This document shows, in pieces, positions 14,417-33,100 of a DNA stretch of 38,500 nt. This DNA comes from Synergistaceae bacterium. GTDB lineage: Bacteria > Synergistota > Synergistia > Synergistales > Synergistaceae. The notes beneath the pieces were generated by a model, which had not been told where the DNA came from, ran no database searches, and saw only the letters and a list, made by a program, of their open reading frames with translations. Location of the stretch: the NCBI GenBank assembly GCA_031549185.1, contig JAVBQG010000054.1, forward strand, positions 1-38,500. Reading direction: 5' to 3'. The translations under genes were made by a program, and so were the position numbers. Position 1 is the stretch's first letter. The number at the start of each line of letters is the position of its first letter.

Positions 14417-15319
14417 ATGAAGATTGACTCTATTTTAGCAGGGGGGCAGGCGCTCTCGTTCGAGGTCTTTCCGCCGAAGCCGGAGCTCGACCAGGACCTG
14501 TCCGGGATCCGCAGGACGCTCTCCGACCTCACGGTCGCGGAGCCGGATTTCGTCTCCGTAACGTACGGCGCGGGGGGCAACAACCGTCCGCGGGCGCTGG
14601 ACATCGCCGAGATGATCCTGGCGCTCGATATGGTGCCGCTCTCCCACCTGACGGCCGTCGGCTACACGAAAGAGGACACGGCGCGTGTGCTGGCTTCGCT
14701 GGCCGCGCGCGGCGTGAAGAACATTCTGGCGCTGCGCGGCGACATTCCGGTAGGAGCGCCGGATGACATCGACCACTGGAAGGACTTCGCGAAGGCGCGG
14801 GACCTCGCCGCGTACGTCGCCTCCTGCGACGCGCGCGAAAAATTTTGCATCGGAGGCGCTGCCTACCCCGAGGGGCATCCGCAGAGCGTATCGCCCGCGG
14901 TCGATATCGAATTCATGAAAGAGAAGGTCGAGGCGGGCACCTCGTTCTTCATCACGCAGCTCTTCTTCGAGGACGAGACGTTTCTCCGCTTCATGGATCG
15001 CGTTCATGCCGCGGGGCTGGATGTACCGGTCATCGCGGGCATCATGCCGGTCTTTCAGGCGAAACAGATCAAGCGCATCGTCGAAATATCGGGCTGCTCG
15101 GTGCCGGAGGAGCTCGCCGTCCTGCTCGATCGCTACGAGAATGATCACGAAGCGATGGCCGACGCGGGCGCGGACTACGCGGCGGGCCAGATCCGGAATC
15201 TGTGGGATAACGGCGTGAGCGGCATTCACGTCTATACGATGAACAAAGCCGCCCGCGTCCTCGACATTCTGAGGCGCTGCGGCATGTCGACGAAGAGGGA
15301 GAGAGGAGCGATTCGATGA
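14417..15319 (+). CDS. metF: 5,10-methylenetetrahydrofolate reductase
   Basis: MetF TIM-barrel motifs are present (…SFEVFPPK…, …VTYGAGG…). 300 aa. Confidence 0.9.
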   Translation: MKIDSILAGGQALSFEVFPPKPELDQDLSGIRRTLSDLTVAEPDFVSVTYGAGGNNRPRALDIAEMILALDMVPLSHLTAVGYTKEDTARVLASLAARGVKNILALRGDIPVGAPDDIDHWKDFAKARDLAAYVASCDAREKFCIGGAAYPEGHPQSVSPAVDIEFMKEKVEAGTSFFITQLFFEDETFLRFMDRVHAAGLDVPVIAGIMPVFQAKQIKRIVEISGCSVPEELAVLLDRYENDHEAMADAGADYAAGQIRNLWDNGVSGIHVYTMNKAARVLDILRRCGMSTKRERGAIR

Positions 15320-17658
15320 TCTCGCGGAGTGAGTTTAGAGCGCTGCTGGAGAGTCGGACGCTGATGCTCGACGGCGGTTACGGCACCAGCTTCTTCGAGA
15401 TGGGCTTTGGGGATGTTCCCGGAGAAAAGTTGAATCTGGAACACCCTGAAGCCGTGGAGGCGCTGCACAGAAATTACGTCGAAGCAGGCGCGGACATCCT
15501 GCTCACGAACACCTTCGGAGGCAACCGCAGCAAGCTGGCGGAGACGCACCTGGAGAACGATATCAGGGAGATTCACTCGTCGGCGGTCGCCATCGCGCGC
15601 CGCGCTGCGAAAGGTGCCGCGCGTCGCGTACTCGTGTTCGGGGATATTTCCTCCACGGGAAGGCTGCCTGCGCCGAGCGGCGAGGGCAGCTTTGCCGAGT
15701 GTCGCGAGGTCTACCGAGAGCAGGCGTCTCTTCTGCTCGAGGCCGGGTGCGACGGTCTGATCGTGGAGACGATCACCGACGTCAAAGAGCTGAAGGCCGC
15801 TGTGATCGCGGTACGCGAGCTGTCGACGGACGTCCCGCTGATCGCGCAGATGGCGTTCGACGCCGCCGGCACGACGCTGACCGGCGCGTCGGTCGAGGTC
15901 TTCGCCGCCGTGTTGAACGACCTCGACGTCGACGTCCTCGGCATGAACTGCCTTGTCGGGCCGGACGAAATGTTGCCGAATCTGCGCCGCCTCGCCGCCT
16001 GCACGGATCGTTTCCTGTCGGTGGAACCCAACGCGGGCGATCCGATTTTCGACGGGACGAAGACGATCTATCCGACGAGCGCCGTCGATTTTTCCCTCTT
16101 CGTGGAGGAGTTCGTCGAGGCGGGCGCGTCGATCGTCGGCGGCTGCTGCGGTACATCGCCGGAGCACATTCGCGCCGCGGCCGCGCTCGTTCGCGACATC
16201 ACGCCGGCCGGCCGGGCCCGTCGCAAGGTGTCGCTCCCGCCTCGCCTCGCTTCGCGGACCGTCGTCCACGATATGGACGGTTTTGCCGTGATTGGCGAGC
16301 GCATCAACCCGACGGGCCGCAAGCCCTTGCGCGATTCGATGCGCGAGGGCGACTGGGGGCGCATGCTCGACGAGGCCGCCGCCCAATCGCGCGAGGGGGC
16401 ACACGTGCTCGACGTCAACTTCGGCGTGGAGAAGTTCTTTACCCCGGAGAAGGTGGTCGACGCTTTCATCGCCCTCGACCGGGCGACGACGGCCCCGCTG
16501 TCGCTGGACATCCAGACGCTCGAACTGATGGAGGCCGCGCTGGCGGACTATCCCGGCAGGCCGCTCGTCAACTCGACGGCCTGCGACCGGGCCTCGCTGG
16601 AGAAAAAACTGCCTCTGCTGAAAAAGTACGGCGGCATGATGATCCTCCTCGCGATGAAAGACGACATCGCGCACAGCGCAGACGAGCGGATGCGGGCCGT
16701 GGAGGAGGCGCTTGCGTACGCCGAGACCCTTGGGGTCGCGCGCGACCGCTTTCTGATCGACCCACTGGCGCTGTCGCTGGGGACGGGTTACGACCACCGC
16801 GTCACGCTCGAGGTCGTCCGGTGCTGTACGGAGCGGGGACTCCTCACGACGATGGGCCTCTCAAACCTCTCGCATGGGATGCCGAATCGCTCGGGCATCA
16901 ACGCCGCCTTCCTCTCGCAGGCGATCGAGGCTGGCTTGTCGTCCGCGATCATGAACAGCGGCGACGAGGTCGTGATGCAGACGCTCTTCGGCGCCCAGCT
17001 GCTCAAGACCGGGGAGCTGGAGGACCGGGTGGGCGACACGCAACTCGACCCGCTGGTGGAAGCCCTGCTCTCCGGCCGCGGAAAGACCGCGGACGGACTG
17101 GTCGACGAAAAACTCGCCGGGGGTATGGCGCCGCTCGACGTCAGCCAGTCCTTCCTGGGCGGCGCGATGGAGACGGTGGGCGCGCTCTATGAGGCGAAGA
17201 AGATATTCCTGCCCCACATCCTCTTCGCGGCGGAGACGGCGTTCCCCATCTTCGACCGGCTGAACGGGATGATGGCGGGCGCAGTCGCGACGCGCGGCAA
17301 GGTTCTGCTGGCGACGGTCGAAGGCGACATCCACGACATCGGCAAGAACATCGTCGGCACGGTGCTGCGCGCGGGCGGTTTCGAGGTCGTCGATATCGGC
17401 AAGAACATCACGGCAGGGGAGATCGCCGAGGCGGCGGAGCTGCATAGGCCGAACGTCGTCGGCCTCTCGGCCATGATGACGACGACCGTCGGGCGTGTGG
17501 CGGAGGTAGGCGCTCTGTTGAAAGAGCGCGGCGTAAATGTCGTTGTGATCTCGGGAGGAGCCTCCATGAGCGCGGAGCTCGCGAGCCTCTTCGGCGTTCG
17601 CTACGCGGCGGACAGCAGCGGCGCACTGTCGCTCTGCAAGGAGCTCGTGAAAAAATAG
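15316..17658 (+). CDS. metH: Cobalamin-dependent methionine synthase, short form (Hcy-binding, pterin-binding and B12-binding domains; no activation domain)
   Basis: ATGA overlap with metF. Homocysteine S-methyltransferase N-terminus, pterin-binding barrel, and B12-binding DxHxxG (DIHDIG). 780 aa, ending after the Rossmann B12 domain. Confidence 0.9.
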   Translation: MISRSEFRALLESRTLMLDGGYGTSFFEMGFGDVPGEKLNLEHPEAVEALHRNYVEAGADILLTNTFGGNRSKLAETHLENDIREIHSSAVAIARRAAKGAARRVLVFGDISSTGRLPAPSGEGSFAECREVYREQASLLLEAGCDGLIVETITDVKELKAAVIAVRELSTDVPLIAQMAFDAAGTTLTGASVEVFAAVLNDLDVDVLGMNCLVGPDEMLPNLRRLAACTDRFLSVEPNAGDPIFDGTKTIYPTSAVDFSLFVEEFVEAGASIVGGCCGTSPEHIRAAAALVRDITPAGRARRKVSLPPRLASRTVVHDMDGFAVIGERINPTGRKPLRDSMREGDWGRMLDEAAAQSREGAHVLDVNFGVEKFFTPEKVVDAFIALDRATTAPLSLDIQTLELMEAALADYPGRPLVNSTACDRASLEKKLPLLKKYGGMMILLAMKDDIAHSADERMRAVEEALAYAETLGVARDRFLIDPLALSLGTGYDHRVTLEVVRCCTERGLLTTMGLSNLSHGMPNRSGINAAFLSQAIEAGLSSAIMNSGDEVVMQTLFGAQLLKTGELEDRVGDTQLDPLVEALLSGRGKTADGLVDEKLAGGMAPLDVSQSFLGGAMETVGALYEAKKIFLPHILFAAETAFPIFDRLNGMMAGAVATRGKVLLATVEGDIHDIGKNIVGTVLRAGGFEVVDIGKNITAGEIAEAAELHRPNVVGLSAMMTTTVGRVAEVGALLKERGVNVVVISGGASMSAELASLFGVRYAADSSGALSLCKELVKK

Positions 17659-17823: not shown

Positions 17824-18477
17824 TTACAGCCCCTTCTGCTCCGGCAGGTCGAAGCCCTCTCCCAGGAAGTGCGCGTCGCCCATAAGGCTCACCCTCGGGG
17901 CTTGGTTCTCGCGCAGCTCGGCGACCGTGAGACTGCAGTTGGCGATCTGGAAGCTCCAGAAGCTCGACAGCGGCGCGCCGAGGAAGTGGCAGAGGAGCAC
18001 CTTGATCACCGCGTCATGAGCGGCGACGCAGACGTCGCCGCTGTGTTTTTTCGCCAGTGTTTCGACGGTCTCGATCGAGCGTACCTGAACGTCCCGCAGC
18101 GCCTCGCCGCCCTCGCCCGGCATGATGACGGTGTGGGGGGAGGAGTGCCAGAGGTCGAGCACTCGCGGCCAGCCCTTCTGTACCTCGGAGGAGAGCAGCC
18201 CCTCCCAGTCGCCGTGGTTGATCTCCGTGAATCCCTCCACGATCTCGAACGCCTCGCAGTGGCACGTCGCGGCGATCTTCTCGGCCGTGATCCGCGCGCG
18301 CGCGAGTGGGCTCGTGGCGACCGCCTCGAACTTTCCGTCCATCCGGCCCGCCAGATAGGCGGCGATCTTGTCGGCCTGGGCGAGCCCGAACTCGCTCAAG
18401 TCCGTGTCCTGCTGCCCCTGGAAGCGCCCCTCGCGGTTCCAGAGGGTCTCGCCGTGCCGTACGATGAAGAGCCGCAT
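17824..18477 (-). CDS. Histidine phosphatase (phosphoglycerate mutase-like) superfamily protein; candidate phosphoserine phosphatase
   Basis: N-terminal RHGE motif (MRLFIVRHGETLWN) and typical dPGM-fold length (217 aa). The start codon overlaps the serA stop (TAATG). Confidence 0.75.
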   Translation of the reverse strand: MRLFIVRHGETLWNREGRFQGQQDTDLSEFGLAQADKIAAYLAGRMDGKFEAVATSPLARARITAEKIAATCHCEAFEIVEGFTEINHGDWEGLLSSEVQKGWPRVLDLWHSSPHTVIMPGEGGEALRDVQVRSIETVETLAKKHSGDVCVAAHDAVIKVLLCHFLGAPLSSFWSFQIANCSLTVAELRENQAPRVSLMGDAHFLGEGFDLPEQKGL

Positions 18478-20135
18478 TATTCTGTCTCTCCGTTGAGAGT
18501 CACCATCGTCGCCCAGAGCATGTCGGCGTCCCTGGCGATGGTGTTGCAGAGTTCGTCGCTCAGTTTGCCGTCGACCTCCATCACGGCGAGGGCGAGGCCG
18601 CTCGCCTCCTTGCGCCCAAGCGCGAAATTCGCGATGTTGACGTTCGCGTCGCCGAGCATCTTCCCGAGCTTGCCGATGACGCCGGGGCGGTCGTGGTTCT
18701 GGAAGAGCAGAAGGTGGCCGTGCGGCACGAAGTCGATCCAGTAGTCGTTGATCTTGACGATGTGCTGGCGCCCCTCCTCGGTAATGGTGCCGGTGAGCTT
18801 CGCTGTCGTCTTGCCCGCTTCGACCGTGACCTCGATGACGTTGCGGTAGGTCCTCGGCTCGCCGCTGCTCTCCTCGATCGCGATGCCGCGCTCCTGCGCG
18901 AGCAGCGGCGCGATCATGTAGTTGACGTCGGGGCCGTGCGTGACTTCGAGCAGGCCCTTCAGAAAGGCGATGGTATAGGGGTGCAGCGCGCCCGCCGCGT
19001 CGTCCTCGTCGCAGAGCTGCGTGCCGCGCAGCATGACCTTGCAGGTCTGTACCGCGCCGCCCTCTGCGTCGACCAACTGTGCGATCAGGATGCCCATCTT
19101 GCGGGCGAGGCGCAGGTAATTTTTCTGTATCTCGTTCAGGTGCTGCTCCATGAAGGGGAGATTGACCGCGTGCTCATACTGCTCGCCGCGCAGGGCTGCC
19201 AGCAGGTTGGTTACGGCGATGCGCGCGACCTCGGTTTGCGCCTCCTGCGTGCTCGCTCCCAGGTGCGGGGTGAGCACCACGCGGTCGGCGATCTCCTTCG
19301 CGAGCAGGGGGTGATCCTTCGCCGGCGGCTCCTGCGTGAAGACGTCGAACGCCGCCCCGGCCAGGCGCCCCTCGCGGATCGCCTCGGCGCACGCGGCCTC
19401 GTCGACCACGCCGCCGCGCGCGCAGTTGATCAGAAACGCGCCCGGCTTGAAGGCGCGCAGCATCTTCTCGTCGATGAGGTTGCGCGTCTCCTTCGTGATC
19501 GGCACGTGCAGCGACACGAGGTCGACCAGCGCCAGGGTCCCCGCCAGATCGTCGGCCACGGCGATGCCGAGAGTCTGCGCCTTCTTGGGCGAGATGAAGG
19601 GGTCGTACCCGATCACCTCCATGCCAAACGCGCGGCAGCGTTGAGCGACCGCGACGCCGATGCGGCCGAGGCCCACGACGAGAATTTTTTTCCCGTTGAG
19701 CTGGCGGCCGGTGAAGTTCTTGCGCTCCCATTTGCCGGCGGCGAGCGACGCGTGCGCCTGAGGAGTCTTGCGCACCAGCGCGAGCATCAGCGCCATCGTC
19801 TGTTCGGCTGCGGCTAGCGTGTTGCCGGTGGGCGCGTTGATGACGACGATGCCCCGCTTGCTCGCTTCGGGCAGGTTGACATTGTCGACGCCGACCCCCG
19901 CGCGGGCGATGACCTTGATGTTCGTCGCCGCGTCGATGGCCTCTTTGTCCATCGTGGTGCCGCTGCGCGTGATGATCGCGTCGTATTCGTACAGCGACTT
20001 CAGCAGCTCCTCGCGCGCCATCGAGCTGTCGACCGTCAGGTCCACGTCGTTCGCCGCGCGGAGCATGGCAAGCCCCTCTTCGCCGAGCGGCTCCGGCACC
20101 AGAACCTTGAACTTTTCCCCTTTCGTCGGGCTCAT
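18477..20135 (-). CDS. serA: D-3-phosphoglycerate dehydrogenase (with C-terminal ACT domain)
   Basis: 2-Hacid-DH NAD-binding motif GLGRIGVAVAQ, catalytic His/Glu/Arg context, and a C-terminal ACT domain. The start is taken at ATG 20135 (MSPTKGEKFKVLV…) after a GGAGGGG RBS; the track ORF is extended upstream to 20216. Confidence 0.9.
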   Translation of the reverse strand: MSPTKGEKFKVLVPEPLGEEGLAMLRAANDVDLTVDSSMAREELLKSLYEYDAIITRSGTTMDKEAIDAATNIKVIARAGVGVDNVNLPEASKRGIVVINAPTGNTLAAAEQTMALMLALVRKTPQAHASLAAGKWERKNFTGRQLNGKKILVVGLGRIGVAVAQRCRAFGMEVIGYDPFISPKKAQTLGIAVADDLAGTLALVDLVSLHVPITKETRNLIDEKMLRAFKPGAFLINCARGGVVDEAACAEAIREGRLAGAAFDVFTQEPPAKDHPLLAKEIADRVVLTPHLGASTQEAQTEVARIAVTNLLAALRGEQYEHAVNLPFMEQHLNEIQKNYLRLARKMGILIAQLVDAEGGAVQTCKVMLRGTQLCDEDDAAGALHPYTIAFLKGLLEVTHGPDVNYMIAPLLAQERGIAIEESSGEPRTYRNVIEVTVEAGKTTAKLTGTITEEGRQHIVKINDYWIDFVPHGHLLLFQNHDRPGVIGKLGKMLGDANVNIANFALGRKEASGLALAVMEVDGKLSDELCNTIARDADMLWATMVTLNGETE

Positions 20136-20139
20136 CGTC

Positions 20140-21282
20140 CTACCCCTCCATCCATACGTCGTAGGCTTTCGCCATAAAATCGCCCGCGTTTTTGCGCGCG
20201 TCGCCCATGGCGGCATAGAGGCCCCCGAGGGCGAGCGAGATCTCCGGCCAGTTGAAGTCGCCGTAGTGTGCCATGCGGATGATCTTGCCCTTGAGCTCCG
20301 CCTGCCCGCCCGCGGGATCGATGCCCATCGCCTTCAGCGCCTTCGAGACGGCGGCGGTGTCCCCATTCGGCAGCGAGAAGGCGGTCACGCCCGGCGAACG
20401 GAAATTTTTATCCTTCACGAGCGGCTCGTAGCCGAGCGCTTCCAACCCGGCGACGAAAGCGCGGGCCGCGCGGGTGCGGAAGGCGAACCAGTTCTCGGGG
20501 TCGCCATGGGCGAGAATTTCATCCAGCGCCGTTTCGAGGGCGTAATAGAGCGATACCGGGGGGGTGTATGGATTTTCGGGCGTGTCCTTGTAGAGCACTT
20601 TTTTCTGCCGCATGAGGTCGAAGTAGTAGTTGGCGCACTTTCTTTCCGCCGCTGCCTCCCAGCCCCGCTCGGAAACCCAGACGAGCGCGAGGCCCGGGGG
20701 CGTGAGCAGACCCTTCTGCGAGGCTGTCGCGAGGGCATCGATGCCCCACTCCTGCGGATAGCAGGGCATCGCGCCGGTCGAGCTGACGCCGTCGACCAGC
20801 ACGAGCGGCCTCTTCTCCTTCGGCAGCGCCGCGACGATCTCCTTGATCGGGTTCATCACGGCGGTCGACGTCTCGTTCTGCGTCAGGAGCAGCACGGTGC
20901 AATTCGGGTTTTTCTTTACGGCTTCCGCGACGAGCTCCGGCGTCGCGCCGCTGCCCAGGGGGACGTCGACTGCCGTCACGTTCGCGCCGTACAGGGCCGT
21001 GATCTCGCGGAAGCGGTCGCCGAAGACGCCGCACGAGACCGACAGAACGTCAACGCCCGGTCCCGTGAAGTTGGCCGCGAGGCACTCGAGCCCGCCGGTG
21101 CCCGCCGCAGGGAAGATGACCGTGCGCCCCTCGCTCTTGAGCAGCTTTGCCAGTTTCTCCTCGACGCGGGTGAAGAGCTCCGAGAAGGCCTTGCCCCTGT
21201 GTCCGACGAGCGGGCGCGCCTGGCTGAGCGAAACTTCAGGGGTGACCGCGACGGGTCCTGGTGTGAACAGATACTGATTCAT
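20140..21282 (-). CDS. serC: Class V aminotransferase (serine-pyruvate / archaeal-type phosphoserine aminotransferase)
   Basis: Class V aminotransferase fold with the PLP-Lys context …TASQKGLL…. 380 aa, GGAGGTG RBS, 4 nt upstream of serA. Confidence 0.8.
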   Translation of the reverse strand: MNQYLFTPGPVAVTPEVSLSQARPLVGHRGKAFSELFTRVEEKLAKLLKSEGRTVIFPAAGTGGLECLAANFTGPGVDVLSVSCGVFGDRFREITALYGANVTAVDVPLGSGATPELVAEAVKKNPNCTVLLLTQNETSTAVMNPIKEIVAALPKEKRPLVLVDGVSSTGAMPCYPQEWGIDALATASQKGLLTPPGLALVWVSERGWEAAAERKCANYYFDLMRQKKVLYKDTPENPYTPPVSLYYALETALDEILAHGDPENWFAFRTRAARAFVAGLEALGYEPLVKDKNFRSPGVTAFSLPNGDTAAVSKALKAMGIDPAGGQAELKGKIIRMAHYGDFNWPEISLALGGLYAAMGDARKNAGDFMAKAYDVWMEG

Positions 21283-21314
21283 AAAAACACCTCCATAAGA
21301 TTTGCGTATCGTTT

Positions 21315-21352
21315 AAAAAAAGAGGAGTCGACCTTTTTAGGGTCGACTCCTC
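21315..21352 (-). terminator. Intrinsic terminator inside the serC 5' leader (attenuator terminator)
   Basis: On the minus strand: GAGGAGTCGACC-CTAAAAA-GGTCGACTCCTC (12-bp perfect stem) followed by TTTTTTT. It lies only about 33 nt before the serC start codon. Confidence 0.7.
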
Positions 21353-21399
21353 GTCTCTTCTCTCGATGTGCCGAAATTTTTAGCCGTTGTCGAGCGGGA

Positions 21400-21537
21400 T
21401 CAGGCGCTGCAATCCTCCGAGGCGAGAAGTCGATCAATAGACCAGGAAGCTCCGGACGTAGAGTCGGAGCTGGAGGAGGATCCCATTCCACAGAGGTGCC
21501 CATAAATAGCTGTGCCAAACGCTTCGTTCCGTGTCAT
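21400..21537 (-). CDS. Candidate leader peptide (45 aa) MTRNEAFGTAIYGHLCGMGSSSSSDSTSGASWSIDRLLASEDCSA, with a Ser-codon run
   Basis: ATG 7 nt after a strong GGGAGGG RBS. Nine Ser codons fall within 14 codons (TCC TCC TCC AGC TCC GAC TCT ACG TCC GGA GCT TCC TGG TCT). The stop lies 48 nt before the terminator. It is too short to appear in the ORF track. Confidence 0.45.
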   Translation of the reverse strand: MTRNEAFGTAIYGHLCGMGSSSSSDSTSGASWSIDRLLASEDCSA

Positions 21538-21594
21538 GGTCTTTCCCTCCCTCGCGATCGAAATCCCGCGCCCTTTATTTGCGCGACGCGTAAA

Positions 21595-21623
21595 CTTATA
21601 TCACCCTGTGCAAAATATGTCAA
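21595..21623 (-). promoter_or_regulatory. Putative promoter of the ser leader transcript (TTGACA-N17-TATAAG on the minus strand)
   Basis: -35 is 21623..21618 and -10 is 21600..21595. It begins 17 nt after the oadB-like stop. Confidence 0.4.
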
Positions 21624-21639
21624 TGGTTTTTTCGAAATC

Positions 21640-22749
21640 TTAACCTCCCAGATACGCCAGCAGTATGCCGCCCGCCAGGACGGAGCCGATCTGTCCCGAC
21701 ACGTTCGCTCCCACTGCGTGCATCAGGAGGAAGTTGTTCGGGTCGGCCTGTTGCCCCAGCCGCTGGATGACGCGCGAGGACATCGGAAACGCGCTGATGC
21801 CCGCGGCTCCGACCATGGGGTTGACTTTCCGCTCTTCGGGGAGAAAGAAGTTGAGGATCTTCGCCGAGATCACGCCGCCCGCCGTGTCGAAGACGAACGC
21901 GATCAACCCCATGCCGATGATGATGAGGGTGTTTTTGTTGACGAAGTCAGCCCCCGTCATCGTGGCCGAGATAGAGAACCCGAGCAGGATCGTAACGATG
22001 TTGGCGAGCTCGTTCTGCGCCGCCTGCGCGAGACGCCTCGTGACGCCGCTCTCGCGGATCAGGTTGCCGAACATCAGAAAGCCGATCAGGGCGACCGAAG
22101 CGGGGGCCACCAGCCCCGCGACGAGCGTCACGATAATGGGGAAGAGGATCAGCTTGGTGCGCGACACCTCGACGTGCGCGTAGCGCATCCGCATCTTTCG
22201 CTCCTTCTCCGTCGTAAGCAGTTTGATCACCGGCGGTTGAATGAGCGGTACGAGCGCCATGTACGTGTAGGCTGCGACCGAAATCGGCGCGAGCAATCGC
22301 GGCGCGAAGCGGTTCGCCACGTAGATCGACGTCGGCCCGTCGGCCGCGCCGATGATGCCGATGGAGGCGGCTTCGAAGATGTTGAAGCCGAGGAGCGTGG
22401 CGAGCCCCATGGTGAGGAAGATCCCCGCCTGCGCCGTGAGGCCGAAGAGGAACATCAGCGGGTTAGACAGGAGGGGAGTAAAATCGCACATCGCGCCCAC
22501 CGCGATGAAGATCAGAAGGGGGAAGAGTTCGTTCGAAATGCCGCCGCGAAAGAGCATGTCGAGCGCGCCCTCGATCATCTTGCCCCCCGCCATATGGTCG
22601 AGCGCGGAGGACATCGGGAGGTTCACCAGGATCGTGCCGAAGCCCATGGCGAGTAGCAGGTTCGGCTCGTAATCCTTGGCAATTGCCATCCACATAAGAA
22701 AACCGCCGACCGCAAGCATCAGAAGCTGTTGCCATTCAAAACCGAGCAT
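21640..22749 (-). CDS. Na+-transporting decarboxylase beta subunit (OadB/MmdB/GcdB family membrane protein)
   Basis: Polytopic membrane protein of the OAD_beta family type (…GIIGAADGPTSIYV…, …MFGNLIRESGV…). The start is chosen at ATG 22749 (MLGFEWQQ…), giving 370 aa; the track ORF extends to 22860. Confidence 0.8.
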   Translation of the reverse strand: MLGFEWQQLLMLAVGGFLMWMAIAKDYEPNLLLAMGFGTILVNLPMSSALDHMAGGKMIEGALDMLFRGGISNELFPLLIFIAVGAMCDFTPLLSNPLMFLFGLTAQAGIFLTMGLATLLGFNIFEAASIGIIGAADGPTSIYVANRFAPRLLAPISVAAYTYMALVPLIQPPVIKLLTTEKERKMRMRYAHVEVSRTKLILFPIIVTLVAGLVAPASVALIGFLMFGNLIRESGVTRRLAQAAQNELANIVTILLGFSISATMTGADFVNKNTLIIIGMGLIAFVFDTAGGVISAKILNFFLPEERKVNPMVGAAGISAFPMSSRVIQRLGQQADPNNFLLMHAVGANVSGQIGSVLAGGILLAYLGG

Positions 22750-23006
22750 GTACACATCGTCCCTTTCGTTTCCACAGCGATATGGATCTCTTGCGACAGC
22801 TTGCCCTATCACGTCTAATTTAATACAGGAAGTGTCAACGGTAAAGCCCCCTCGACTCATTTCCCTCTCCGAAGATTAAGCGATTTTGCCGATTCATCTG
22901 GATTTTTCCGGCTTTTGTCGCGAGGATAATTCGCAATCAGAATTTACTGACAATAGCGAATCCGCCCGCGGCTCTTGTGCGAGGGGTTTTATCGATGTAA
23001 TATGCA

Positions 23007-24560
23007 ATGTCAAATGCGATTTTGTCCATCGTATCGAAAAAATGGGGGGTAAGTGAAGTGGGAGACAACGAGAACGCGAAAAAACAGAACGCACAGGCAC
23101 CGAAGAGTCAGAACGGAAATTATGGCAATAACGCGACAAACACGGTTCCTGCCGCGAAGAACGTAAAAAAACGCCGCGCCGCCATCACGGAGACGGTGCT
23201 TCGCGACGCTCACCAATCGATCATGGCGACGCGGATGCGCACGAGCGACATGATGCCGATCTGCGAGGCGATGGACGAAGTCGGCTATCACTCTCTCGAA
23301 ATGTGGGGAGGCGCGACGTTCGACGTCGAGATGCGCTTCCTGAACGAAGATCCGTGGGAGAGACTGCGCAAGATTCGCAAGTGCGTGAAGAAAACGAAGC
23401 TCCAGATGCTGTTGCGCGGCCAGAATCTGGTCGGCTACCGGCACTATGCGGACGACGTCGTGCGCGAGTTCGTCAAACGGGCGGTCGGCAACGGAATCGA
23501 CATCGTCCGCATATTCGACGCGCTCAACGACCTGCGTAACATGGAGATCGCGGCCAATCAGGTCAAGCGGGAGGGTGCGCACCTGCAGCTTTCGATCGCA
23601 TACACGATCTCGCCCGTTCACACGCTGGATCTCTTTGTCAAACAGGCCCGCGACATGGCGGACATGGGCGCGGATTCGATCTGCATCAAGGATATGGCGG
23701 GGCTCATGACCCCCGTTGCCTGTCGCTCGCTCGTCGAGGCGATCAAGGCAAAGGTCGATCTGCCGATCCAGCTGCACAGCCACTACACCAGCGGCTTGGC
23801 CGCCATGGCCTACCTGGAGGGCCTCGAGGCCGGAGCGGACGTCTGCGACTGCGCGATCACGCCCTTTGCCATGGGTACCAGCCAGCCCGCGACCGAGACG
23901 ATGGTGGCGGCGCTCGCCGGAGGCGCCCTCGACACGGGGCTGTCGCTCCAGGATCTTCTGCCGGTCGCCGAGTACTTCGCGAAGGTGAAGGAGGAGTACT
24001 CCAGCATTATCATGGGCGTCTCCGGCGTCGACATCAACATCCTGCTCTATCAGGTGCCGGGCGGCATGTACTCGAACCTGCAGAGCCAGTTGAAGGAAGG
24101 AAATGCCCTCAACAAGTTGAAGGACGTGCTGGAAGAGGTACCGCGCGTCCGCGAGGAGATGGGCTATCCGCCGCTGGTGACTCCGACCAGCCAGATCGTC
24201 GGCACACAGGCCGCGATGAACATTCTGGCGGGCGAGCGCTGGAAGATCGTCCCCAAGGAAGTGAAGCAGTATTTCCTCGGTTACTACGGCCGTACGCCCG
24301 CACCCGTGAACAAGGAAATCCAAGCCAAGGTAATCGAAGGCGAAACGCCGATCACCTGCCGCCCCGGCGAGAAGATCGCCCCCGAGCTGGATACGCTGCG
24401 CAAGGAGATCGATGCGTGGGTATTGCAACCGGAGGATGTGTTGTCGTACGCGATGTTCCCGCAGGTCGCGAAGGACTTCCTGCCGCGCAAGTTCGCGAAG
24501 GAGACCAAGGTGAACATCGGCTTCGACGATCCGATCGCGGAGGATTCGTACCCGGTATAA
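23007..24560 (+). CDS. Carboxyltransferase subunit (oxaloacetate decarboxylase alpha / transcarboxylase 5S-like; HMGL-like TIM barrel plus conserved carboxylase domain, no biotinyl domain)
   Basis: …ITETVLRDAHQS…, a TIM-barrel metal site, and a conserved carboxylase domain. The protein ends without a biotin-attachment AMKM motif. There is an N-terminal low-complexity N/K/Q/A-rich extension of about 55 aa. The true start is uncertain; GTG 23056 after GGGGGGTAAG is the alternative. Confidence 0.8.
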   Translation: MSNAILSIVSKKWGVSEVGDNENAKKQNAQAPKSQNGNYGNNATNTVPAAKNVKKRRAAITETVLRDAHQSIMATRMRTSDMMPICEAMDEVGYHSLEMWGGATFDVEMRFLNEDPWERLRKIRKCVKKTKLQMLLRGQNLVGYRHYADDVVREFVKRAVGNGIDIVRIFDALNDLRNMEIAANQVKREGAHLQLSIAYTISPVHTLDLFVKQARDMADMGADSICIKDMAGLMTPVACRSLVEAIKAKVDLPIQLHSHYTSGLAAMAYLEGLEAGADVCDCAITPFAMGTSQPATETMVAALAGGALDTGLSLQDLLPVAEYFAKVKEEYSSIIMGVSGVDINILLYQVPGGMYSNLQSQLKEGNALNKLKDVLEEVPRVREEMGYPPLVTPTSQIVGTQAAMNILAGERWKIVPKEVKQYFLGYYGRTPAPVNKEIQAKVIEGETPITCRPGEKIAPELDTLRKEIDAWVLQPEDVLSYAMFPQVAKDFLPRKFAKETKVNIGFDDPIAEDSYPV

Positions 24561-26223: not shown

Positions 26224-26310
26224 GTCGGGGTGGCGGAACTGGTAGACGCGCTGGGTTCAGGACCCAGTGAGCGCAAGCTCATGGGGGTTCAATTCCCCCC
26301 CTCGACACCA
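26224..26310 (+). tRNA. tRNA-Leu (anticodon CAG), class II with long variable arm, CCA encoded
   Basis: Manual cloverleaf: acceptor GTCGGGG/CCTCGAC (one GU pair), D-arm GCGGAACTGGTAGACGC, anticodon stem CTGGG/CCCAG with loop TTCAGGA, long variable arm, T-arm GGGGG-TTCAATT-CCCCC, discriminator A, then CCA. It is close to E. coli tRNA-Leu(CAG). Confidence 0.85.
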
Positions 26311-26364: not shown

Positions 26365-26393
26365 TTGACAGTTGGTCTCTCTTTTGCTATTAT
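26365..26393 (+). promoter_or_regulatory. Putative rpoBC promoter (TTGACA-N17-TATTAT)
   Basis: Near-consensus hexamers with a 17-nt spacer about 57 nt upstream of the rpoB ATG. An AGAGAG…CTCTCT inverted repeat overlaps the -35. Confidence 0.45.
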
Positions 26394-26449
26394 CTACCGC
26401 CGTACATGTCTATGTACCACAAATTTCACTCAGGGAGGTAGTTCTCCCC

Positions 26450-30141
<3,692 letters not shown>

Positions 30142-30142
<1 letters not shown>

Positions 30143-33100
30143 TGGCTGCTGAGCATCGTCATATAGCTGGGGTTCGCATGAAACTCTCCTCTCCGGAGAG
30201 AGTGCGCGAGCTGTCCAGCGGAGAGGTCAAAAAACCGGAGACCATCAACTACAGAACGCTCCGGCCGGAGAAGGACGGTCTCTTCTGCGAGAGAATATTC
30301 GGCCCCACGCGCAGTTTCGAGTGTGCGTGCGGCAAATACAAGCGCAGCGGCCCCAAATTCCGCGGGGTCGTCTGCGATCGCTGCGGCGTTGAAGTAACGG
30401 ACAACCGCGTCCGCCGTGAGCGCATGGGACACATCGAGCTCGCGGCGCCGGTCGTTCACATCTGGTATCTGCGCGGGATCCCGAGTCGTCTGAGCCTCCT
30501 GCTCGGGACCTCGACGAAGGATCTCGAGAAGGTCGTCTACTTTGCGCCTACCCGTCGCCGGGAGCAGAAATACAAGGTCGTGTCCGACGGCAAGCGCTCG
30601 GACCTCGTGCGCCGCGGCGACCTCGTCACGAGCGGCGAGGAGCGCATCCACAGGCACTACGACCCCAAGTTCAAGGCGGAGGAGGCCTACCGCATCCTCA
30701 AGGTCGACGACATTCCAGTCGACGTAGGCGACGTGATCGGCGCCTCGCAGGTGAAACGCGTCCGCGACGATTTCGGCGAGGATCTCTTCCAGGTAGAGCC
30801 GGCGTTGCGGGTGGTGCATGAGGATGCGACCGACGACACCGGCGAGATCTTCCCCGAGTCGCAGCTTGGGCGCATGAAGGAGCTGATGCCGGACAGGCAG
30901 TTCGTGCCGGTGCACCTGCACAGCCAGGAGGCGTTTTTCGTAACGGCGGTGGTCCACCTTCCCTTCGCGAAGGGCGACGTCATCTCCGAGAGCGAGTACA
31001 GGCTCTATCATCAGAAATACCCCGGCCGTTTTACGGTTCAACCGGAGACGGAGACGGTGGAGGATCCCTGCTCGATCGTCATCGAGGGCAGCGAGTCGCC
31101 GTTCGTCCGCTCCGACATCATTCTCGAGCGCGAAGAGCGCCTTTGCGCAGCGTACGACAAGGGTTTTGTCGGCGGTATCGGCGCCGAGGGCGTCTTTTCG
31201 CTCTTGCAGCGCATCGACCTCGAGGACCTCGTCAGTACGCTGCGTGAGGAGATTGCCGAGTCGTCCGGCCAGAAGAAGCGCAAGCTGGTCAAACGCCTGC
31301 AGATCGCGGAGGACTTCCGTAAGAGCGCGAGCAGTCCCGAATGGATGGTGCTCTCGGTCTTGCCGGTCATTCCGCCGGATCTTCGCCCGATGGTCCAGCT
31401 CGACGGCGGCCGCTTCGCGACCTCCGACCTCAACGATCTCTACCGCAGGGTCATCAATCGCAACAACCGCTTGAAGAAGCTGCAGGAACTTCGCGCTCCC
31501 GATATCATCATCCGCAACGAAAAGAGGATGCTGCAGGAGTCCGTGGACGCCCTGATCGACAACGGGCGCCGGGGCAAAGCCGTTCTTGGGGCGGGAAACA
31601 GGCCGCTCAAGAGTCTCACGGATCTGCTTCGCGGCAAGAAGGGGCGCTTTCGCCAGAATCTGCTGGGCAAGCGTGTGGACTACTCGGGACGCTCCGTCAT
31701 CGTTATCGGGCCGAGCCTCAAGATCTATCAGTGCGGCCTGCCCAAGCAGATGGCGCTAGAGCTGTTCAAGCCCTTCGTGATGAACAAGCTGGTCGAGAAG
31801 GGCCTCGTGCCGAACGTCAAGAGCGCGCGTCGCTTCATCGAGCGCGGCCGCGACGAGGTTTGGGCGATTCTCGAGAACATCATCAAGGATCATCCCGTCA
31901 TGCTCAACCGCGCGCCCACGCTGCACAGGCTCGGTATTCAGGCGTTCGAGCCCGTTCTGATCGAGGGCAAGGCGATTCGCCTGCACCCCCTGGTCTGCAC
32001 GGCGTTCAACGCGGACTTCGACGGCGACCAGATGGCCGTGCACGTGCCGTTGTCGATCGAGGCACAGACGGAGGCGCGAATTTTGATGCTCTCCTCGAAC
32101 AACCTGCTCTCGCCTGCGAGCGGCAGGTCGGTCGTCACGCCGACGCAGGACATCATCCTCGGCATCTACTACCTCACGAGCATGAGAGACGGACTCGTGG
32201 GAGAGGGTTTGCATTTCAGGGACATGGACGACGTGATCTCCGCGATGGACCACGATATCGTCCACGTCAATACGAAGATCAAGCTGAGGGCGATCCCCGA
32301 GTGGAAGGTTTCCTCGAAGGACATCGACGAGCACGGATTCTTCGATACATCTCCCGGTCGCGTGATCTTCAACCAGTCGTTGCATCCGGCGCTTCGCTAC
32401 ATCAACCGTTCGGTGAGCAAGAAAGATCTGAGCTCGCTGCTCGACGATACGTACGATCAGGTCGGGCAGAACGCGATGGTCGACATGCTCGACTCCATCA
32501 AAATCCTGGGTTATCGTTGGTCGACGCGAAGCGGAATCAGCCTCGGCATCGGAGACGTCACGGTCCCGGAGGAGAAAAAGGCGATTGTGGAATACTCCCT
32601 CGGTAAGGAGGCCGACCTCTCCGAGCAGCACGAGATGGGCCTTCTCACGGAGGACGAGTACATGAGGGAAAAGGACTTCATCTGGTCCAACGCGGGCCGC
32701 GAGATCGCGGATCACATCATGGATCACATGAAGACGGAGAACCCTCTGCGTGTCATGGTCGACTCCGGGGCGCGCGGTACGCGCGGGCAGGTGGCCCAGA
32801 TGGCAGGTATTCGTGGCCTGATGGCGGATCCGTCCGGACGTATCATCGACTACCCGATCGTGGCGAACTTCCGCGAGGGTCTCAACATGCTGGAATACTT
32901 CATCTCCACGCACGGCGCCAGAAAGGGCTTGGCGGACACGGCGCTTCGCACGGCGAAGTCGGGCTATCTCACGCGCCGCCTGGTGGACGTGGCGCAGGAT
33001 CTGATCATTACGGAAGAGGACTGTTGCACGGATCAGGGCGTAGAGGTCCGTCCGCTGACGGCGGAGGAGAAGGTCATCATCTCCCTCTCCGAGCGCCTGA

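Follow-up and report, generated by a model that had tools for sequence, protein, structure and literature searches.

A candidate serine-specific leader-peptide attenuator preceding a serine biosynthesis operon in Synergistaceae

Attenuation of transcription through a translated leader peptide is textbook knowledge for Trp, His, Phe, Thr, Leu and Ile/Val. To our knowledge, it is almost entirely proteobacterial and actinobacterial, and the 1:2 protector hairpin is not universal among the attenuators known to us. Serine is thought to be controlled otherwise, which includes Lrp in E. coli, T-boxes in Firmicutes, and an unexplained hairpin in alpha-proteobacteria. Full-text searches of a library with few subscription journals, in which absence is not proof, turned up no natural serine leader-peptide attenuator.

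Elements that sense serine, or that precede its biosynthetic genes, have been described in other forms. For example, a T-box with a Ser specifier lies upstream of Paenibacillus serA (PMC8002221), and the RF00517 serC leader of alpha-proteobacteria is a small hairpin of unexplained mechanism without a leader peptide (Corbino et al. 2005, PMC1273637). In B. subtilis, starvation is sensed through TCN Ser codons of SinR (PMC3862929), and the charging of tRNA-Ser in E. coli falls fast under perturbation, resulting in A-site pauses at Ser codons (PMC6377232). The polycysteine leaderless ORFs of mycobacteria are reported to act on translation and unmask the RBS of the next gene (bioRxiv 10.1101/834739).

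The locus considered here lies in a window of 38,500 nt (the whole stretch of DNA that was analysed) from a Synergistaceae bacterium, in which the original prediction placed a serine attenuator before a serC-serA operon. The gap and the genes concerned are as follows:

21640-21642, minus strand: stop codon TAA of the decarboxylase beta gene
21283-21639, minus strand: gap of 357 nt between the decarboxylase beta gene and serC
21290-21294, minus strand: RBS of serC, GGAGG
20140..21282, minus strand: "serC", class-V (AGT-family) aminotransferase, first gene after the leader, presumed phosphoserine aminotransferase
18477..20135, minus strand: serA, D-3-phosphoglycerate dehydrogenase (TIGR01327)
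17824..18477, minus strand: histidine-phosphatase-superfamily gene (PF00300), candidate PspA-type phosphoserine phosphatase

The serA assignment stood (583 bits against the TIGR01327 cut-off of 454), and its ATG lies 4 nt past the serC stop, with the start at 20135 not being that of the longest ORF. The serC label did not stand, as the enzyme belongs to class V (alanine-glyoxylate aminotransferase family) and its matches to SerC models are weak, and the third gene had been missed. This gene, whose start abuts the end of serA, has PspA as its best NCBIfam match (138 bits, below the cut-off of 350) and phosphoserine phosphatase 1 as its best PDB match (4IJ5, E = 4e-30), and is found downstream of serA in more than 25 related loci. 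With these candidate assignments, the aminotransferase, SerA and the PspA-like phosphatase would form a three-gene operon encoding the whole phosphorylated serine pathway. The fixed linkage to serA and the PspA-like gene suggests a role of the aminotransferase in serine synthesis, and a Ser-specifier T-box before its Firmicutes homologues points the same way: T-boxes scoring 105-136 bits precede L013, L030, L067 and L080 (the loci compared carry L numbers), with the L030 specifier being UCC, a Ser codon. As the operon content fits a serine signal, it was counted in favour of a serine attenuator.

Within the gap, the following elements were recognized:

21595..21623, minus strand: sigma-70-type promoter, read from the sequence and kept in relatives
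21618-21623, minus strand: -35 element TTGACA, 16 nt after the decarboxylase beta TAA
21595-21603, minus strand: extended -10 element TGaTATAAG, with a 17-nt spacer from the -35
21567..21585, minus strand: 5'-proximal hairpin CGCGC-N9-GCGCG at the start of the transcript, read from the sequence
21545..21551, minus strand: Shine-Dalgarno (SD) GGGAGGG of the leader ORF, 7 nt before the ATG at 21535-21537
21400..21537, minus strand: leader ORF of 45 codons plus TGA, MTRNEAFGTAIYGHLCGMGSSSSSDSTSGASWSIDRLLASEDCSA
21439..21480, minus strand: regulatory Ser run, codons 20-33 (S20-S33), 9 Ser in 14 codons
21418..21434, minus strand: antiterminator 5' strand ("region 2"), AUCGACUUCUCGCCUCG, inside the ORF
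21362..21394, minus strand: middle hairpin CUCGA-N23-UCGAG, between stop codon and terminator, nested inside the antiterminator
21343..21357, minus strand: antiterminator 3' strand, GAGACGAGGAGUCGA, overlapping the terminator 5' arm
21315..21352, minus strand: intrinsic terminator with a 12-bp stem (8 G-C pairs), a 7-nt loop and U7
21322-21352, minus strand: terminator stem arms GAGGAGTCGACC / GGTCGACTCCTC
21315-21321, minus strand: T7 tract of the terminator

The sigma70-like promoter claimed directly after the upstream stop and the strong GGGAGGG are both present. The promoter was not flagged by a consensus promoter scan because position 6 of its -10 is G; rather, it is taken as real because it is conserved in relatives, of which 24 of 36 have TTGACAT-N16/17-TGnTATAA(G/A) at the head of the leader by pattern match, and more by eye. 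Transcription would begin at about 21588-21591, around 7 nt after the extended -10, giving the window leader a 5' UTR of ~50 nt that includes the SD. The 5'-proximal hairpin is kept in four of the five close relatives, with L161 showing a two-sided change to CGCAC/GTGCG (by eye), and it possibly contributes to transcript stability.

The leader ORF holds 11 Ser in its 45 codons, of which nine, as first claimed, fall in the 14 codons of the run (TCC five times, TCT twice, AGC, plus TCC at codon 31). Such a density was reached in none of 5000 dinucleotide shuffles of the gap, and no other of the 301 small ORFs counted on the two strands of the window has such a run, the runner-up having seven. 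Ser accounts for 24% of the window leader against 5% of the ten window genes.

Beyond the window, the Ser-run ORF and the terminator proved to be conserved in relatives. The comparison covered 51 loci of Synergistaceae type, with serC identity from 100% down to 44%, and as negative controls 112 loci of other, mostly distant phyla among the matches listed (alignment-based scan); a scan of genome contigs with a single protein query gave no matches. The promoter, the short Ser-rich ORF and the terminator were found together in ~46 of the 51 loci after manual inspection, and a Ser-rich ORF followed by a terminator in 37 of the 51 under strict automatic criteria, while this combination occurred in none of the 112 loci of other phyla among the matches listed. 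Likewise, a terminator in the same relative position is present in 45/51 Synergistaceae-type loci against 9/112 of the others (again among the matches listed), and the best 12-codon window contains a median of 7 Ser against 4 (Mann-Whitney p = 3e-19). The upstream neighbours differ between loci (OAD beta, a cation ATPase, rpsF/ssb on the other strand, an ABC transporter, a histidine kinase), and therefore the element travels with serC. A Ser-rich 25-codon ORF (LCSSSKAFSSSSLSRK...) ~233 nt upstream in some hot-spring loci, one of them titled Armatimonadota, at first suggested a wider distribution, but it lacks a terminator and runs antisense to a divergent upstream gene, and was therefore discarded as a false positive.

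The leaders fall into at least eight mutually unalignable groups using different Ser codons (TCG and TCA dominate in group E, TCY in groups A and G), and their peptides are 35-47 codons long. In 34 distinct leaders, Ser makes up 13-39% of codons against 5-9% in the adjoining gene, an enrichment of 3.6-fold that is the highest of the 20 amino acids and the sole consistent one. All six Ser codons are used across the leaders (TCN being 86% of them), and the reading frame is kept by 3n indels; hence, the constraint is on the amino acid. Among the closest relatives, the ORF has 45, 45, 45, 45 and 43 codons (L162, L170, L081, L163 and L161, respectively), with a single indel of 6 nt and an N-terminal half that is almost free to vary. 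In all inspected relatives, the start codon has either an SD or a fixed near-leaderless start. For example, a GGAGG-type SD is kept in groups A, A2, C, E and G, and the five leaders of group B (L167, L119, L086, L088 and L083) lack an SD and have the ATG 9 nt after the -10, i.e. within ~3 nt of the predicted 5' end, yet they end in terminators. Codons for Cys, Gly and Trp are also enriched in the leaders; it is a weaker possibility that these let the leader integrate demand for serine-derived amino acids.

The terminator has the 12-bp stem and U7 first described, and only its spacing had to be corrected, as the serC GGAGG lies 20 nt from the end of the U-tract and 27 nt from the end of the stem, not about 33 nt. 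Across five leaders, 96.7% of its cells are paired, with three compensatory pairs. Its 5' arm was expected to pair with a segment inside the ORF, and it does so through TCGACTTCTCG and CGAGGAGTCGA (11 bp with one G-U, extendable by CUC:GAG), a pairing kept in the five closest leaders; the second proposed partner, the CTCCTC of the Ser run itself, amounts to a trivial 6-mer match and is not conserved. A conserved GGAGGAU follows the antiterminator 5' strand, whose end lies 15 nt short of the stop codon, and since the 3' strand overlaps the terminator 5' arm, both structures are mutually exclusive.

The window duplex with the terminator 5' arm reaches -22.6 kcal/mol against -16.3 +/- 2.5 for shuffles (p = 0.02). 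In the five leaders of group A, the antiterminator helix has 98.6% of its cells paired against 37-43% when the partners are slid, and the five closest leaders show one compensatory AU<->GC change. Covariation within group A is underpowered with five sequences (169 of 500 shuffles reach the score), and therefore cross-group tests were relied on. The motif CTCGCCTCGGAGG is retained in L164 in another reading frame, which argues that the constraint on it acts on the RNA. The middle hairpin, possibly an RNA polymerase pause site, has 96% of its cells paired, and it gives no covariation evidence because its stem sequence is invariant. An alternative CCGACUCUACG pairing seen in one MFE was set aside, not being conserved in L081.

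The cross-group comparison showed that, from one leader type to another, a change in the terminator goes with a change in the antiterminator strand. Towards its 3' end, every leader ORF resembles the 3' arm of its own terminator and can pair with the 5' arm; in other groups, a different segment replaces the antiterminator strand and again matches its own terminator. This pairing beats shuffles with a mean z of -2.2 (p < 0.05 in 19/34 leaders), and when tested against segments taken from other groups, the cognate pair came among the top two in 12 of 21 representatives. In group G, the ORF 3' part is no more complementary to the terminator than its shuffles are. The mimic of the terminator 3' arm is here the end of the Ser run, which would be masked by a ribosome that stalls late in the run.

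Folding, with MFE structures obtained for the window, L119, L002 and L154, predicts the alternative terminator and antiterminator structures that had been proposed, switched by ribosome position. With a ribosome placed on Ser codons 24-31 of the window leader, the antiterminator is in the MFE. As long as the terminator 3' arm has yet to be transcribed, the 5' arm has a probability of upstream pairing of 0.71 with the ribosome on the Ser codons against 0.30 with it on the stop codon. The model thus predicts that the antiterminator forms on a Ser-codon stall and is prevented by a ribosome at the stop codon. Against the model, the distance from the antiterminator 5' strand to the stop codon is 15 nt in the window and 25 nt in groups D and F; a ribosome on the stop would barely cover this strand, and hence the timing of ribosome transit or steric exclusion must bring about termination. 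Equilibrium folding also predicts the antiterminator in the untranslated RNA of most leaders (0.68 vs 0.61), which implies that a trp-like protector hairpin is not general; L119 is predicted to have a 1:2 protector, the window and L081 have one in part, and most leaders lack it. Hence, untranslated RNA would read through by default, and only a ribosome completing the leader would terminate transcription.

As the ORF, the alternative pairing and the terminator are kept in ~46 of the 51 loci, the element is most probably a ribosome-mediated (leader-peptide) transcription attenuator specific for serine that controls the three-gene serine operon. The relatives retain the Ser-rich ORF and the terminator, an outcome opposite to the loss that the original prediction had named as refuting it, and the prediction is in this sense supported; the regulation itself is something we infer. 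Translation of the ORF, stalling at Ser codons, ribosome-polymerase coupling, the direction of regulation and the response to seryl-tRNA are presumed in the following scheme. A ribosome would load at GGGAGGG and translate the 45-codon leader; when charged tRNA-Ser is scarce, it would stall in the nine-Ser run (21439-21480) and free AUCGACUUCUCG.CCUC in the ORF downstream of the run. This segment would pair with the emerging GAG.ACGAGGAGUCGA, taking away the terminator 5' arm, and RNA polymerase would read on into serC-serA-pspA. When seryl-tRNA is plentiful, the ribosome would pass AUCGACUUCUCG.CCUC to the stop codon 15 nt beyond and melt or exclude the antiterminator, the 12-bp/U7 hairpin would form, and transcription would end.

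The same leader could instead be read as a translation-coupled attenuator whose signal is general translation capacity or coupling and not serine in particular, with the Ser run as the by-product of a pyrimidine-rich strand pairing with GGAGG-like purines. The window Ser run is CU-rich and complementary to GGAGG motifs (UCCUCCUCC to the SD and to the conserved GGAGGAU), and hence its sequence may in part reflect RNA pairing; in line with this, the unconstrained MFE pairs the run with the SD, TCY is over-used in the window leader (8/11 Ser codons against 30% in the genes, Fisher p = 0.006), group G has a Ser run whose end is identical to the terminator 3' arm, and one nucleotide motif is conserved whatever the reading frame. 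However, Ser is equally enriched in group E, whose codons are mainly TCG/TCA/AGY and not CU-rich, no other amino acid is consistently enriched, the element stands only before the serine operon across many different neighbourhoods, and Firmicutes have a Ser-specific T-box in the same place. A report of general translation is accordingly an improbable account of the element.

An RNA switch with a metabolite, tRNA or protein as its ligand (a riboswitch, a T-box-like or a protein-bound leader), with the ORF being incidental, is very unlikely. The window leader is strongly structured as a whole (z = -3.25 against shuffles), and some nucleotide motifs are conserved regardless of frame, as such a switch would have them. 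Against this, the leader groups have no shared aptamer-like core, the start codon always keeps its SD or near-leaderless start, the indels preserve the frame, and no known RNA was matched. Rfam gave no leader, T-box or riboswitch match in the whole window at gathering thresholds and generic terminator-like matches alone in 21200-21720 at E <= 10; the alpha-proteobacterial serC leader (RF00517) and the glycine riboswitch (RF00504) had no match in the gap at E <= 10; the T-box (RF00230) was found neither in the window nor in L081, L164, L119, L002 or L154; and glycine riboswitches were detected in L079 and L063 only, neither of them Synergistaceae.

An independent small-protein gene for a Ser/Gly-rich peptide with its own terminator, with serC-serA transcribed from a separate promoter or by unregulated leak-through, has hardly any probability: the ORF has a strong SD, a near-identical 45-aa ORF is annotated as a gene in L170 (one public assembly) and the terminator is strong (equilibrium probability 0.84 in the window), but even in close relatives the peptide is not conserved outside its Ser/Gly-rich core and the stretch overlapping the RNA pairing, the 20-60 nt between U-tract and serC RBS across loci hold no promoter-like site, and the ORF never occurs apart from serC and invariably has, at its 3' end, a mimic of its own terminator arm. 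A RiPP or other small-protein reading was rejected as there are no adjacent modification genes and the peptide is not conserved. An exact look-up of the window peptide in a protein collection gave no match.

The serine attenuator thus proposed resembles trpL, hisL, leuL, thrL, pheL and ilvL in having a short ORF with a run of end-product codons. As in classical proteobacterial attenuators, an intrinsic terminator precedes the first structural gene, and the antiterminator shares the terminator 5' arm so that the ribosome position is predicted to select between them. Unlike these, it concerns serine and a Synergistaceae host, it has no sequence or CM similarity to any Rfam leader, its leaders are long, no general 1:2 protector is predicted, and the antiterminator 5' strand is contained in the ORF and ends 0-25 nt short of the stop, whereas in the classical case it straddles or follows the stop. 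The mechanism would hence be classical and the serine specificity a new variant.

Likenesses extend to the other systems too. With the Firmicutes Ser T-box, the leader shares the position before a homologous aminotransferase-serA operon, presumably the tRNA-Ser charging signal, and the output of terminator versus antiterminator; the T-box, unlike the Synergistaceae leaders, reads uncharged tRNA directly without a ribosome. Similarly, RF00517 is a conserved cis-element before serC-serA, and differs from the Synergistaceae element in that the latter has a leader peptide. As in SinR (PMC3862929), ribosome slowing at Ser codons is proposed to read serine supply; in SinR, sensing occurs within a normal coding gene and alters protein yield, without the terminator/antiterminator switch of the window leader. 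The mycobacterial Cys ORFs (bioRxiv 10.1101/834739) are also sensory ORFs rich in codons for the amino acid of the downstream operon, in which ribosome stalling remodels mRNA structure (here a prediction), and their leaderless form recalls the near-leaderless, SD-less group B; the present leaders differ from them by using Ser and a canonical terminator as output, and the window leader by its strong SD.

With less assurance, we favour the view that the complete phosphorylated serine pathway of Synergistaceae has the serine attenuator as its usual control throughout the family, in at least eight unalignable leader families, some near-leaderless and most without a protector, where read-through would be the default and termination would come only from a ribosome completing the leader. 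If true, this would be the first natural attenuator for serine, adding one amino acid and one phylum to leader-peptide attenuation, and it would directly attest to a tight coupling of transcription and translation in Synergistota, a poorly studied diderm phylum. The T-box and the leader peptide would then represent convergent tRNA-Ser sensing before the same operon. The more than 30 divergent switches with a common logic, including near-leaderless ones, would offer a natural set for studying attenuator evolution, and the leader may serve synthetic biology as a ready serine-responsive part. For the family itself, the element would lend independent support to placing the class-V aminotransferase and the histidine-phosphatase-family gene in serine biosynthesis.

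The 357-nt intergenic gap on the minus strand, lying between a decarboxylase beta gene (21640-22860) and the aminotransferase gene that the original prediction called serC (20140-21282), carries a leader that is real, non-random and strongly conserved. On re-reading of the sequence, the promoter, ribosome-binding site, 45-codon ORF, serine run and terminator claimed for this gap were all found in place.

Leader features in the window
21640-22860, minus strand: upstream gene, Na+-translocating decarboxylase beta
21618-21623, minus strand: promoter -35, TTGACA, read from the sequence
21595-21603, minus strand: extended -10, TGaTATAAG, after a 17-nt spacer, read from the sequence
21545-21551, minus strand: leader Shine-Dalgarno (SD) sequence, GGGAGGG
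ATG 21535-21537, stop 21400-21402, minus strand: leader ORF of 45 codons, MTRNEAFGTAIYGHLCGMGSSSSSDSTSGASWSIDRLLASEDCSA
21418-21434, minus strand: antiterminator 5' strand, AUCGACUUCUCG.CCUC, within the ORF and followed by a conserved GGAGGAU
21362-21394, minus strand: conserved middle hairpin
21343-21357, minus strand: antiterminator 3' strand, GAG.ACGAGGAGUCGA, overlapping the terminator 5' arm
21315-21352, minus strand: intrinsic terminator, a 12-bp hairpin (8 GC) followed by T7

The serine run (codons 20-33, 9 Ser in 14 codons) was reached in 0 of 5000 dinucleotide shuffles of the gap and has no equal in the 301 small ORFs counted over the two window strands, and the folding of the whole leader beats 200 of 200 shuffles (z = -3.25). 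A consensus promoter scan did not flag the window promoter because its -10 ends in G, and hence the promoter call depends on conservation in relatives.

Conservation was followed in at least 171 loci around aminotransferase homologues among the matches listed, of which 51 Synergistaceae-type loci and 112 from other phyla were scored. The leader of the homologue locus L081 (83% protein identity) is alignable with the window over 360 nt at 72% identity, with the promoter, SD, 45-codon frame, stop position and terminator all kept, and four further close relatives (L162, L170, L161 and L163) show the same pattern. The leader ORFs of these relatives differ by a single indel of 6 nt, and their N-terminal 18 codons vary almost freely while the frame remains open. 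In the more distant Synergistaceae-type loci, whose protein identity falls to as little as 44%, the leaders no longer align with that of the window. Their layout persists nonetheless: a TTGACAT...TATAA promoter stands ahead of a short ORF (23-47 codons, the richest 12-codon stretch holding 5-9 Ser), the stop codon lies 90-170 nt upstream of the gene, and 50-80 nt upstream of it comes a hairpin with a U-run. Examples of the serine-rich peptides include MRNKTYSSSISSSSLSSGCPSCG... (L002), ...GTGSSSSSSSGWSGRAG... (L154), ...CKGTVSSSLSSGASSSCGGSG... (L001) and MMKIIELGGFGSGYVSSGCSSSCDG... (L119). By strict automatic criteria, 37 of the 51 Synergistaceae-type loci were positive against 0 of 112 from other phyla, among the matches listed, and the serine maximum separates the two sets (p = 3e-19). 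Nine of the 14 automatic negatives were positive by inspection, the causes being a wrongly picked ORF or terminator or a short U-run, which brings the retention of ORF and terminator expected by the original prediction to about 46 of 51. The genes 5' of the leader vary among loci, and therefore the element belongs to serC.

There are five true exceptions (L082, L084, L089, L090 and L112), two of which resemble deletion derivatives. L082 (about 870-998) looks degenerate, its promoter being directly followed by a weak 6-bp hairpin without a leader ORF. L090 (about 1500-1700) likewise looks degenerate, having kept the antiterminator/terminator pair with an ORF of just 9 codons (MKLLISRSI) and two AGT serines. 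In L161 (about 1385-1470), the terminator and the serC ribosome-binding site are separated by some 50 additional nucleotides, in which another GC-rich hairpin runs into T7 and may form a tandem terminator. Annotations of the leader region disagree: L164 (1174-1329, minus strand) and L165 (1157-1279, minus strand) have an ORF called opposite the leader strand, and the public assembly of L170 (938-1075, plus strand) annotates the 45-aa leader peptide itself. A serine-rich 25-codon ORF (LCSSSKAFSSSSLSRK...) about 233 nt upstream in L122, L149, L003, L121 and similar loci was rejected as a leader, being the antisense of a divergent gene; these loci form a hot-spring group, one of them titled Armatimonadota, and serve as a warning for automated scans for serine ORFs.

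Serine accounts for 13-39% of codons across 34 distinct leaders, compared with 5-9% in the gene next to them, and this 3.6-fold enrichment is the highest among all amino acids. All six serine codons are used, with group E leaders (one of at least eight mutually unalignable types) having chiefly TCG and TCA with some AGY, and groups A (the window and its closest relatives) and G chiefly TCC and TCT. Hence the serine run is not merely a CU-rich RNA strand, and the codon patterns indicate that the encoded residue, and translation as such, are under constraint. Each inspected leader either carries a GGAGG-type SD, placed 7-12 nt ahead of a start codon in frame, or lacks an SD altogether. In the five SD-less leaders (L167, L119, L086, L088 and L083), the ATG lies exactly 9 nt past the -10 hexamer and the seventh nucleotide past it is A in 5/5; a 5' UTR of 3 nt is therefore predicted, and with it near-leaderless translation of the leader peptide. 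Towards the end of the ORF, L164 keeps the nucleotides of the motif CUCGCCUCGGAGG but reads them in another frame than the window does, so this segment is constrained as RNA. TCY (TCC or TCT) makes up 8 of the 11 serine codons of the window leader; its share is 30% in ten genes of the window (Fisher p = 0.006) and 1 of 17 in the adjoining serC. The excess may reflect a sensitive or minor isoacceptor or a structural constraint from RNA pairing. Cysteine (2.2-fold), glycine (1.4-fold) and, slightly, tryptophan (1.2-fold) are also enriched in the 34 leader ORFs. All three are derived from serine, and their enrichment could be due to chance, RNA constraints or the sensing of multiple amino acids.

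The original prediction raised the possibility that the terminator and an antiterminator exclude one another, and this is borne out by folding, by duplex tests against shuffles, and by the overlap of the antiterminator 3' strand with the terminator 5' arm, which makes the two structures mutually exclusive. The window antiterminator duplex reaches -22.6 kcal/mol against -16.3 ± 2.5 for ORF-segment shuffles, and placing a ribosome footprint over Ser codons 24-31 makes it the minimum-free-energy fold of the nascent RNA. In the set of 34 leaders, pairing between the 3' end region of the ORF and the 5' arm of the same leader's terminator is stronger than for shuffled ORF segments (mean z = -2.2; p < 0.05 in 19). 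Against the segments of other groups the cognate pair ranked first or second in 12 of 21 representatives. The terminators are wholly different between groups (GAGGAGUCGACC, GCGAGGAACC, ACGGGAAGCCU, GAGAUCGAAGG, AGGCCGGAAGGG) and the ORF segment varies in step; in L002, for example, a 13-bp antiterminator ends 2 nt short of UAA. In group A (five sequences), pairing reaches 98.6% in the antiterminator, against 37-43% in slid controls, and 96.7% in the terminator. Compensatory pairs number one (AU<->GC, beside three G-U changes) in the former and three in the latter; with n=5, these statistics are not significant alone. In group G the complementarity test was not significant; there it is the end of the serine run that resembles the terminator 3' arm.

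Before the terminator 3' arm is made, the 5' arm is paired upstream with a mean probability of 0.71 when the ribosome sits on the Ser codons and 0.30 when it sits on the stop codon. In equilibrium folding of untranslated RNA, the antiterminator is also predicted for most leaders (0.68 vs 0.61 stalled), a trp-like drop being seen only in L119 and, in part, in the window and L081. Therefore a protector hairpin is not general, and on these models read-through may be the default. Between the end of the antiterminator strand and the stop codon lie 15 nt in the window and 25 nt in groups D and F, so a ribosome at the stop would cover the strand just marginally, and timing or steric exclusion would be required.

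The operon below the leader was claimed as serC-serA. The serA assignment stands, as a full-length D-3-phosphoglycerate dehydrogenase (TIGR01327, 583 bits) with its ATG at 20135, 4 nt past the stop of the first gene; the first gene itself (20140-21282, minus strand) encodes a class-V enzyme of the alanine-glyoxylate-aminotransferase family, not canonical SerC, and all of its nearest relatives by protein sequence belong to uncultured Synergistaceae. The third gene and the surroundings are as follows.

Operon end and genomic context in the window
17824-18477, minus strand: third gene, histidine-phosphatase superfamily, adjoining the end of serA
15316-17658, plus strand: B12-dependent methionine synthase (MetH-like)
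23007-24560, plus strand: carboxyltransferase of the oxaloacetate-decarboxylase alpha type, encoded on the other strand from the beta subunit
26224-26307, plus strand: long-arm tRNA with anticodon CAG (Leu)
26372-35148, plus strand: rpoB and rpoC

The third gene best matches the PspA-type phosphoserine phosphatase NF045917 in NCBIfam (138 bits, under the curated cut-off) and 4IJ5, 'phosphoserine phosphatase 1', in the PDB (E = 4e-30). Since this PspA-like gene adjoins serA and recurs 3' of it in more than 25 related Synergistaceae loci, family membership and linkage suggest that the three genes probably make up the whole three-step phosphorylated serine pathway.

Rfam 15 gave no matches in the gap at gathering thresholds and generic terminator look-alikes only at E <= 10; an alpha-proteobacterial serC leader hairpin (PMC1273637) likewise had no match there at E <= 10. 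In four Firmicutes loci, the same Rfam search placed T-box leaders (105-136 bits) directly 5' of the aminotransferase homologue (L013 2693-2934; L030 2726-2950; L067 2393-2630; L080 2742-2939). The specifier position of L030, read from the alignment, is the Ser codon UCC, so the Firmicutes version of the operon is regulated through tRNA-Ser charging; this supports both the serine-pathway gene assignment and the plausibility of a seryl-tRNA signal. Glycine riboswitches precede the aminotransferase homologue in L079 (2745-2839) and L063 (2793-2882), so that three RNA devices, namely serine-rich leader, T-box and glycine riboswitch, are found 5' of one aminotransferase family. The Ser-specifier T-boxes (PMC8002221) share operon, signal and output with the present element, although no ribosome takes part in their sensing of the tRNA. 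Its closest analogues, the leaders of proteobacterial trp, his, leu, thr and phe operons, share the proposed mechanism, whereas amino acid, phylum and sequence differ. The mycobacterial polycysteine leaderless sORFs share the sensory-ORF idea and leaderless starts but have a translational output, unlike the terminator here. That serine codons are workable as sensors is supported by E. coli, in which tRNA-Ser charging is lost fast with A-site pausing (PMC6377232), and by B. subtilis SinR, in which TCN codons act as a serine sensor (PMC3862929).

Under the mechanism that we infer, transcription would start at the conserved promoter and be coupled to translation of the leader peptide. When seryl-tRNA is scarce, the ribosome would stall within the serine run, the antiterminator would form and RNA polymerase would continue into the operon. 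When it is plentiful, the ribosome would pass the antiterminator strand and reach the stop codon, the terminator would form and the transcript would end after about 275 nt. Anatomy and its statistics, conservation and the alternative folds make a serine-specific, ribosome-mediated leader-peptide attenuator, as originally predicted, the best-supported reading and a likely one. The features of such attenuators that are testable in silico were found, save membership in a curated Rfam leader family and a general protector hairpin, itself a non-universal feature.

A natural serine leader-peptide attenuator was not found in the mostly non-subscription full-text literature covered, and an earlier description may exist; the main text of a structured-RNA survey of Thermovirga lienii (Synergistetes) mentions no serine, serA or leader peptide. 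In function the element would be a classical leader-peptide attenuator, and its novelty would lie in the amino acid sensed and the phylum concerned, together with unusual near-leaderless members and the apparent lack of a protector hairpin. It is of interest to specialists in bacterial gene regulation but does not amount to a new principle.
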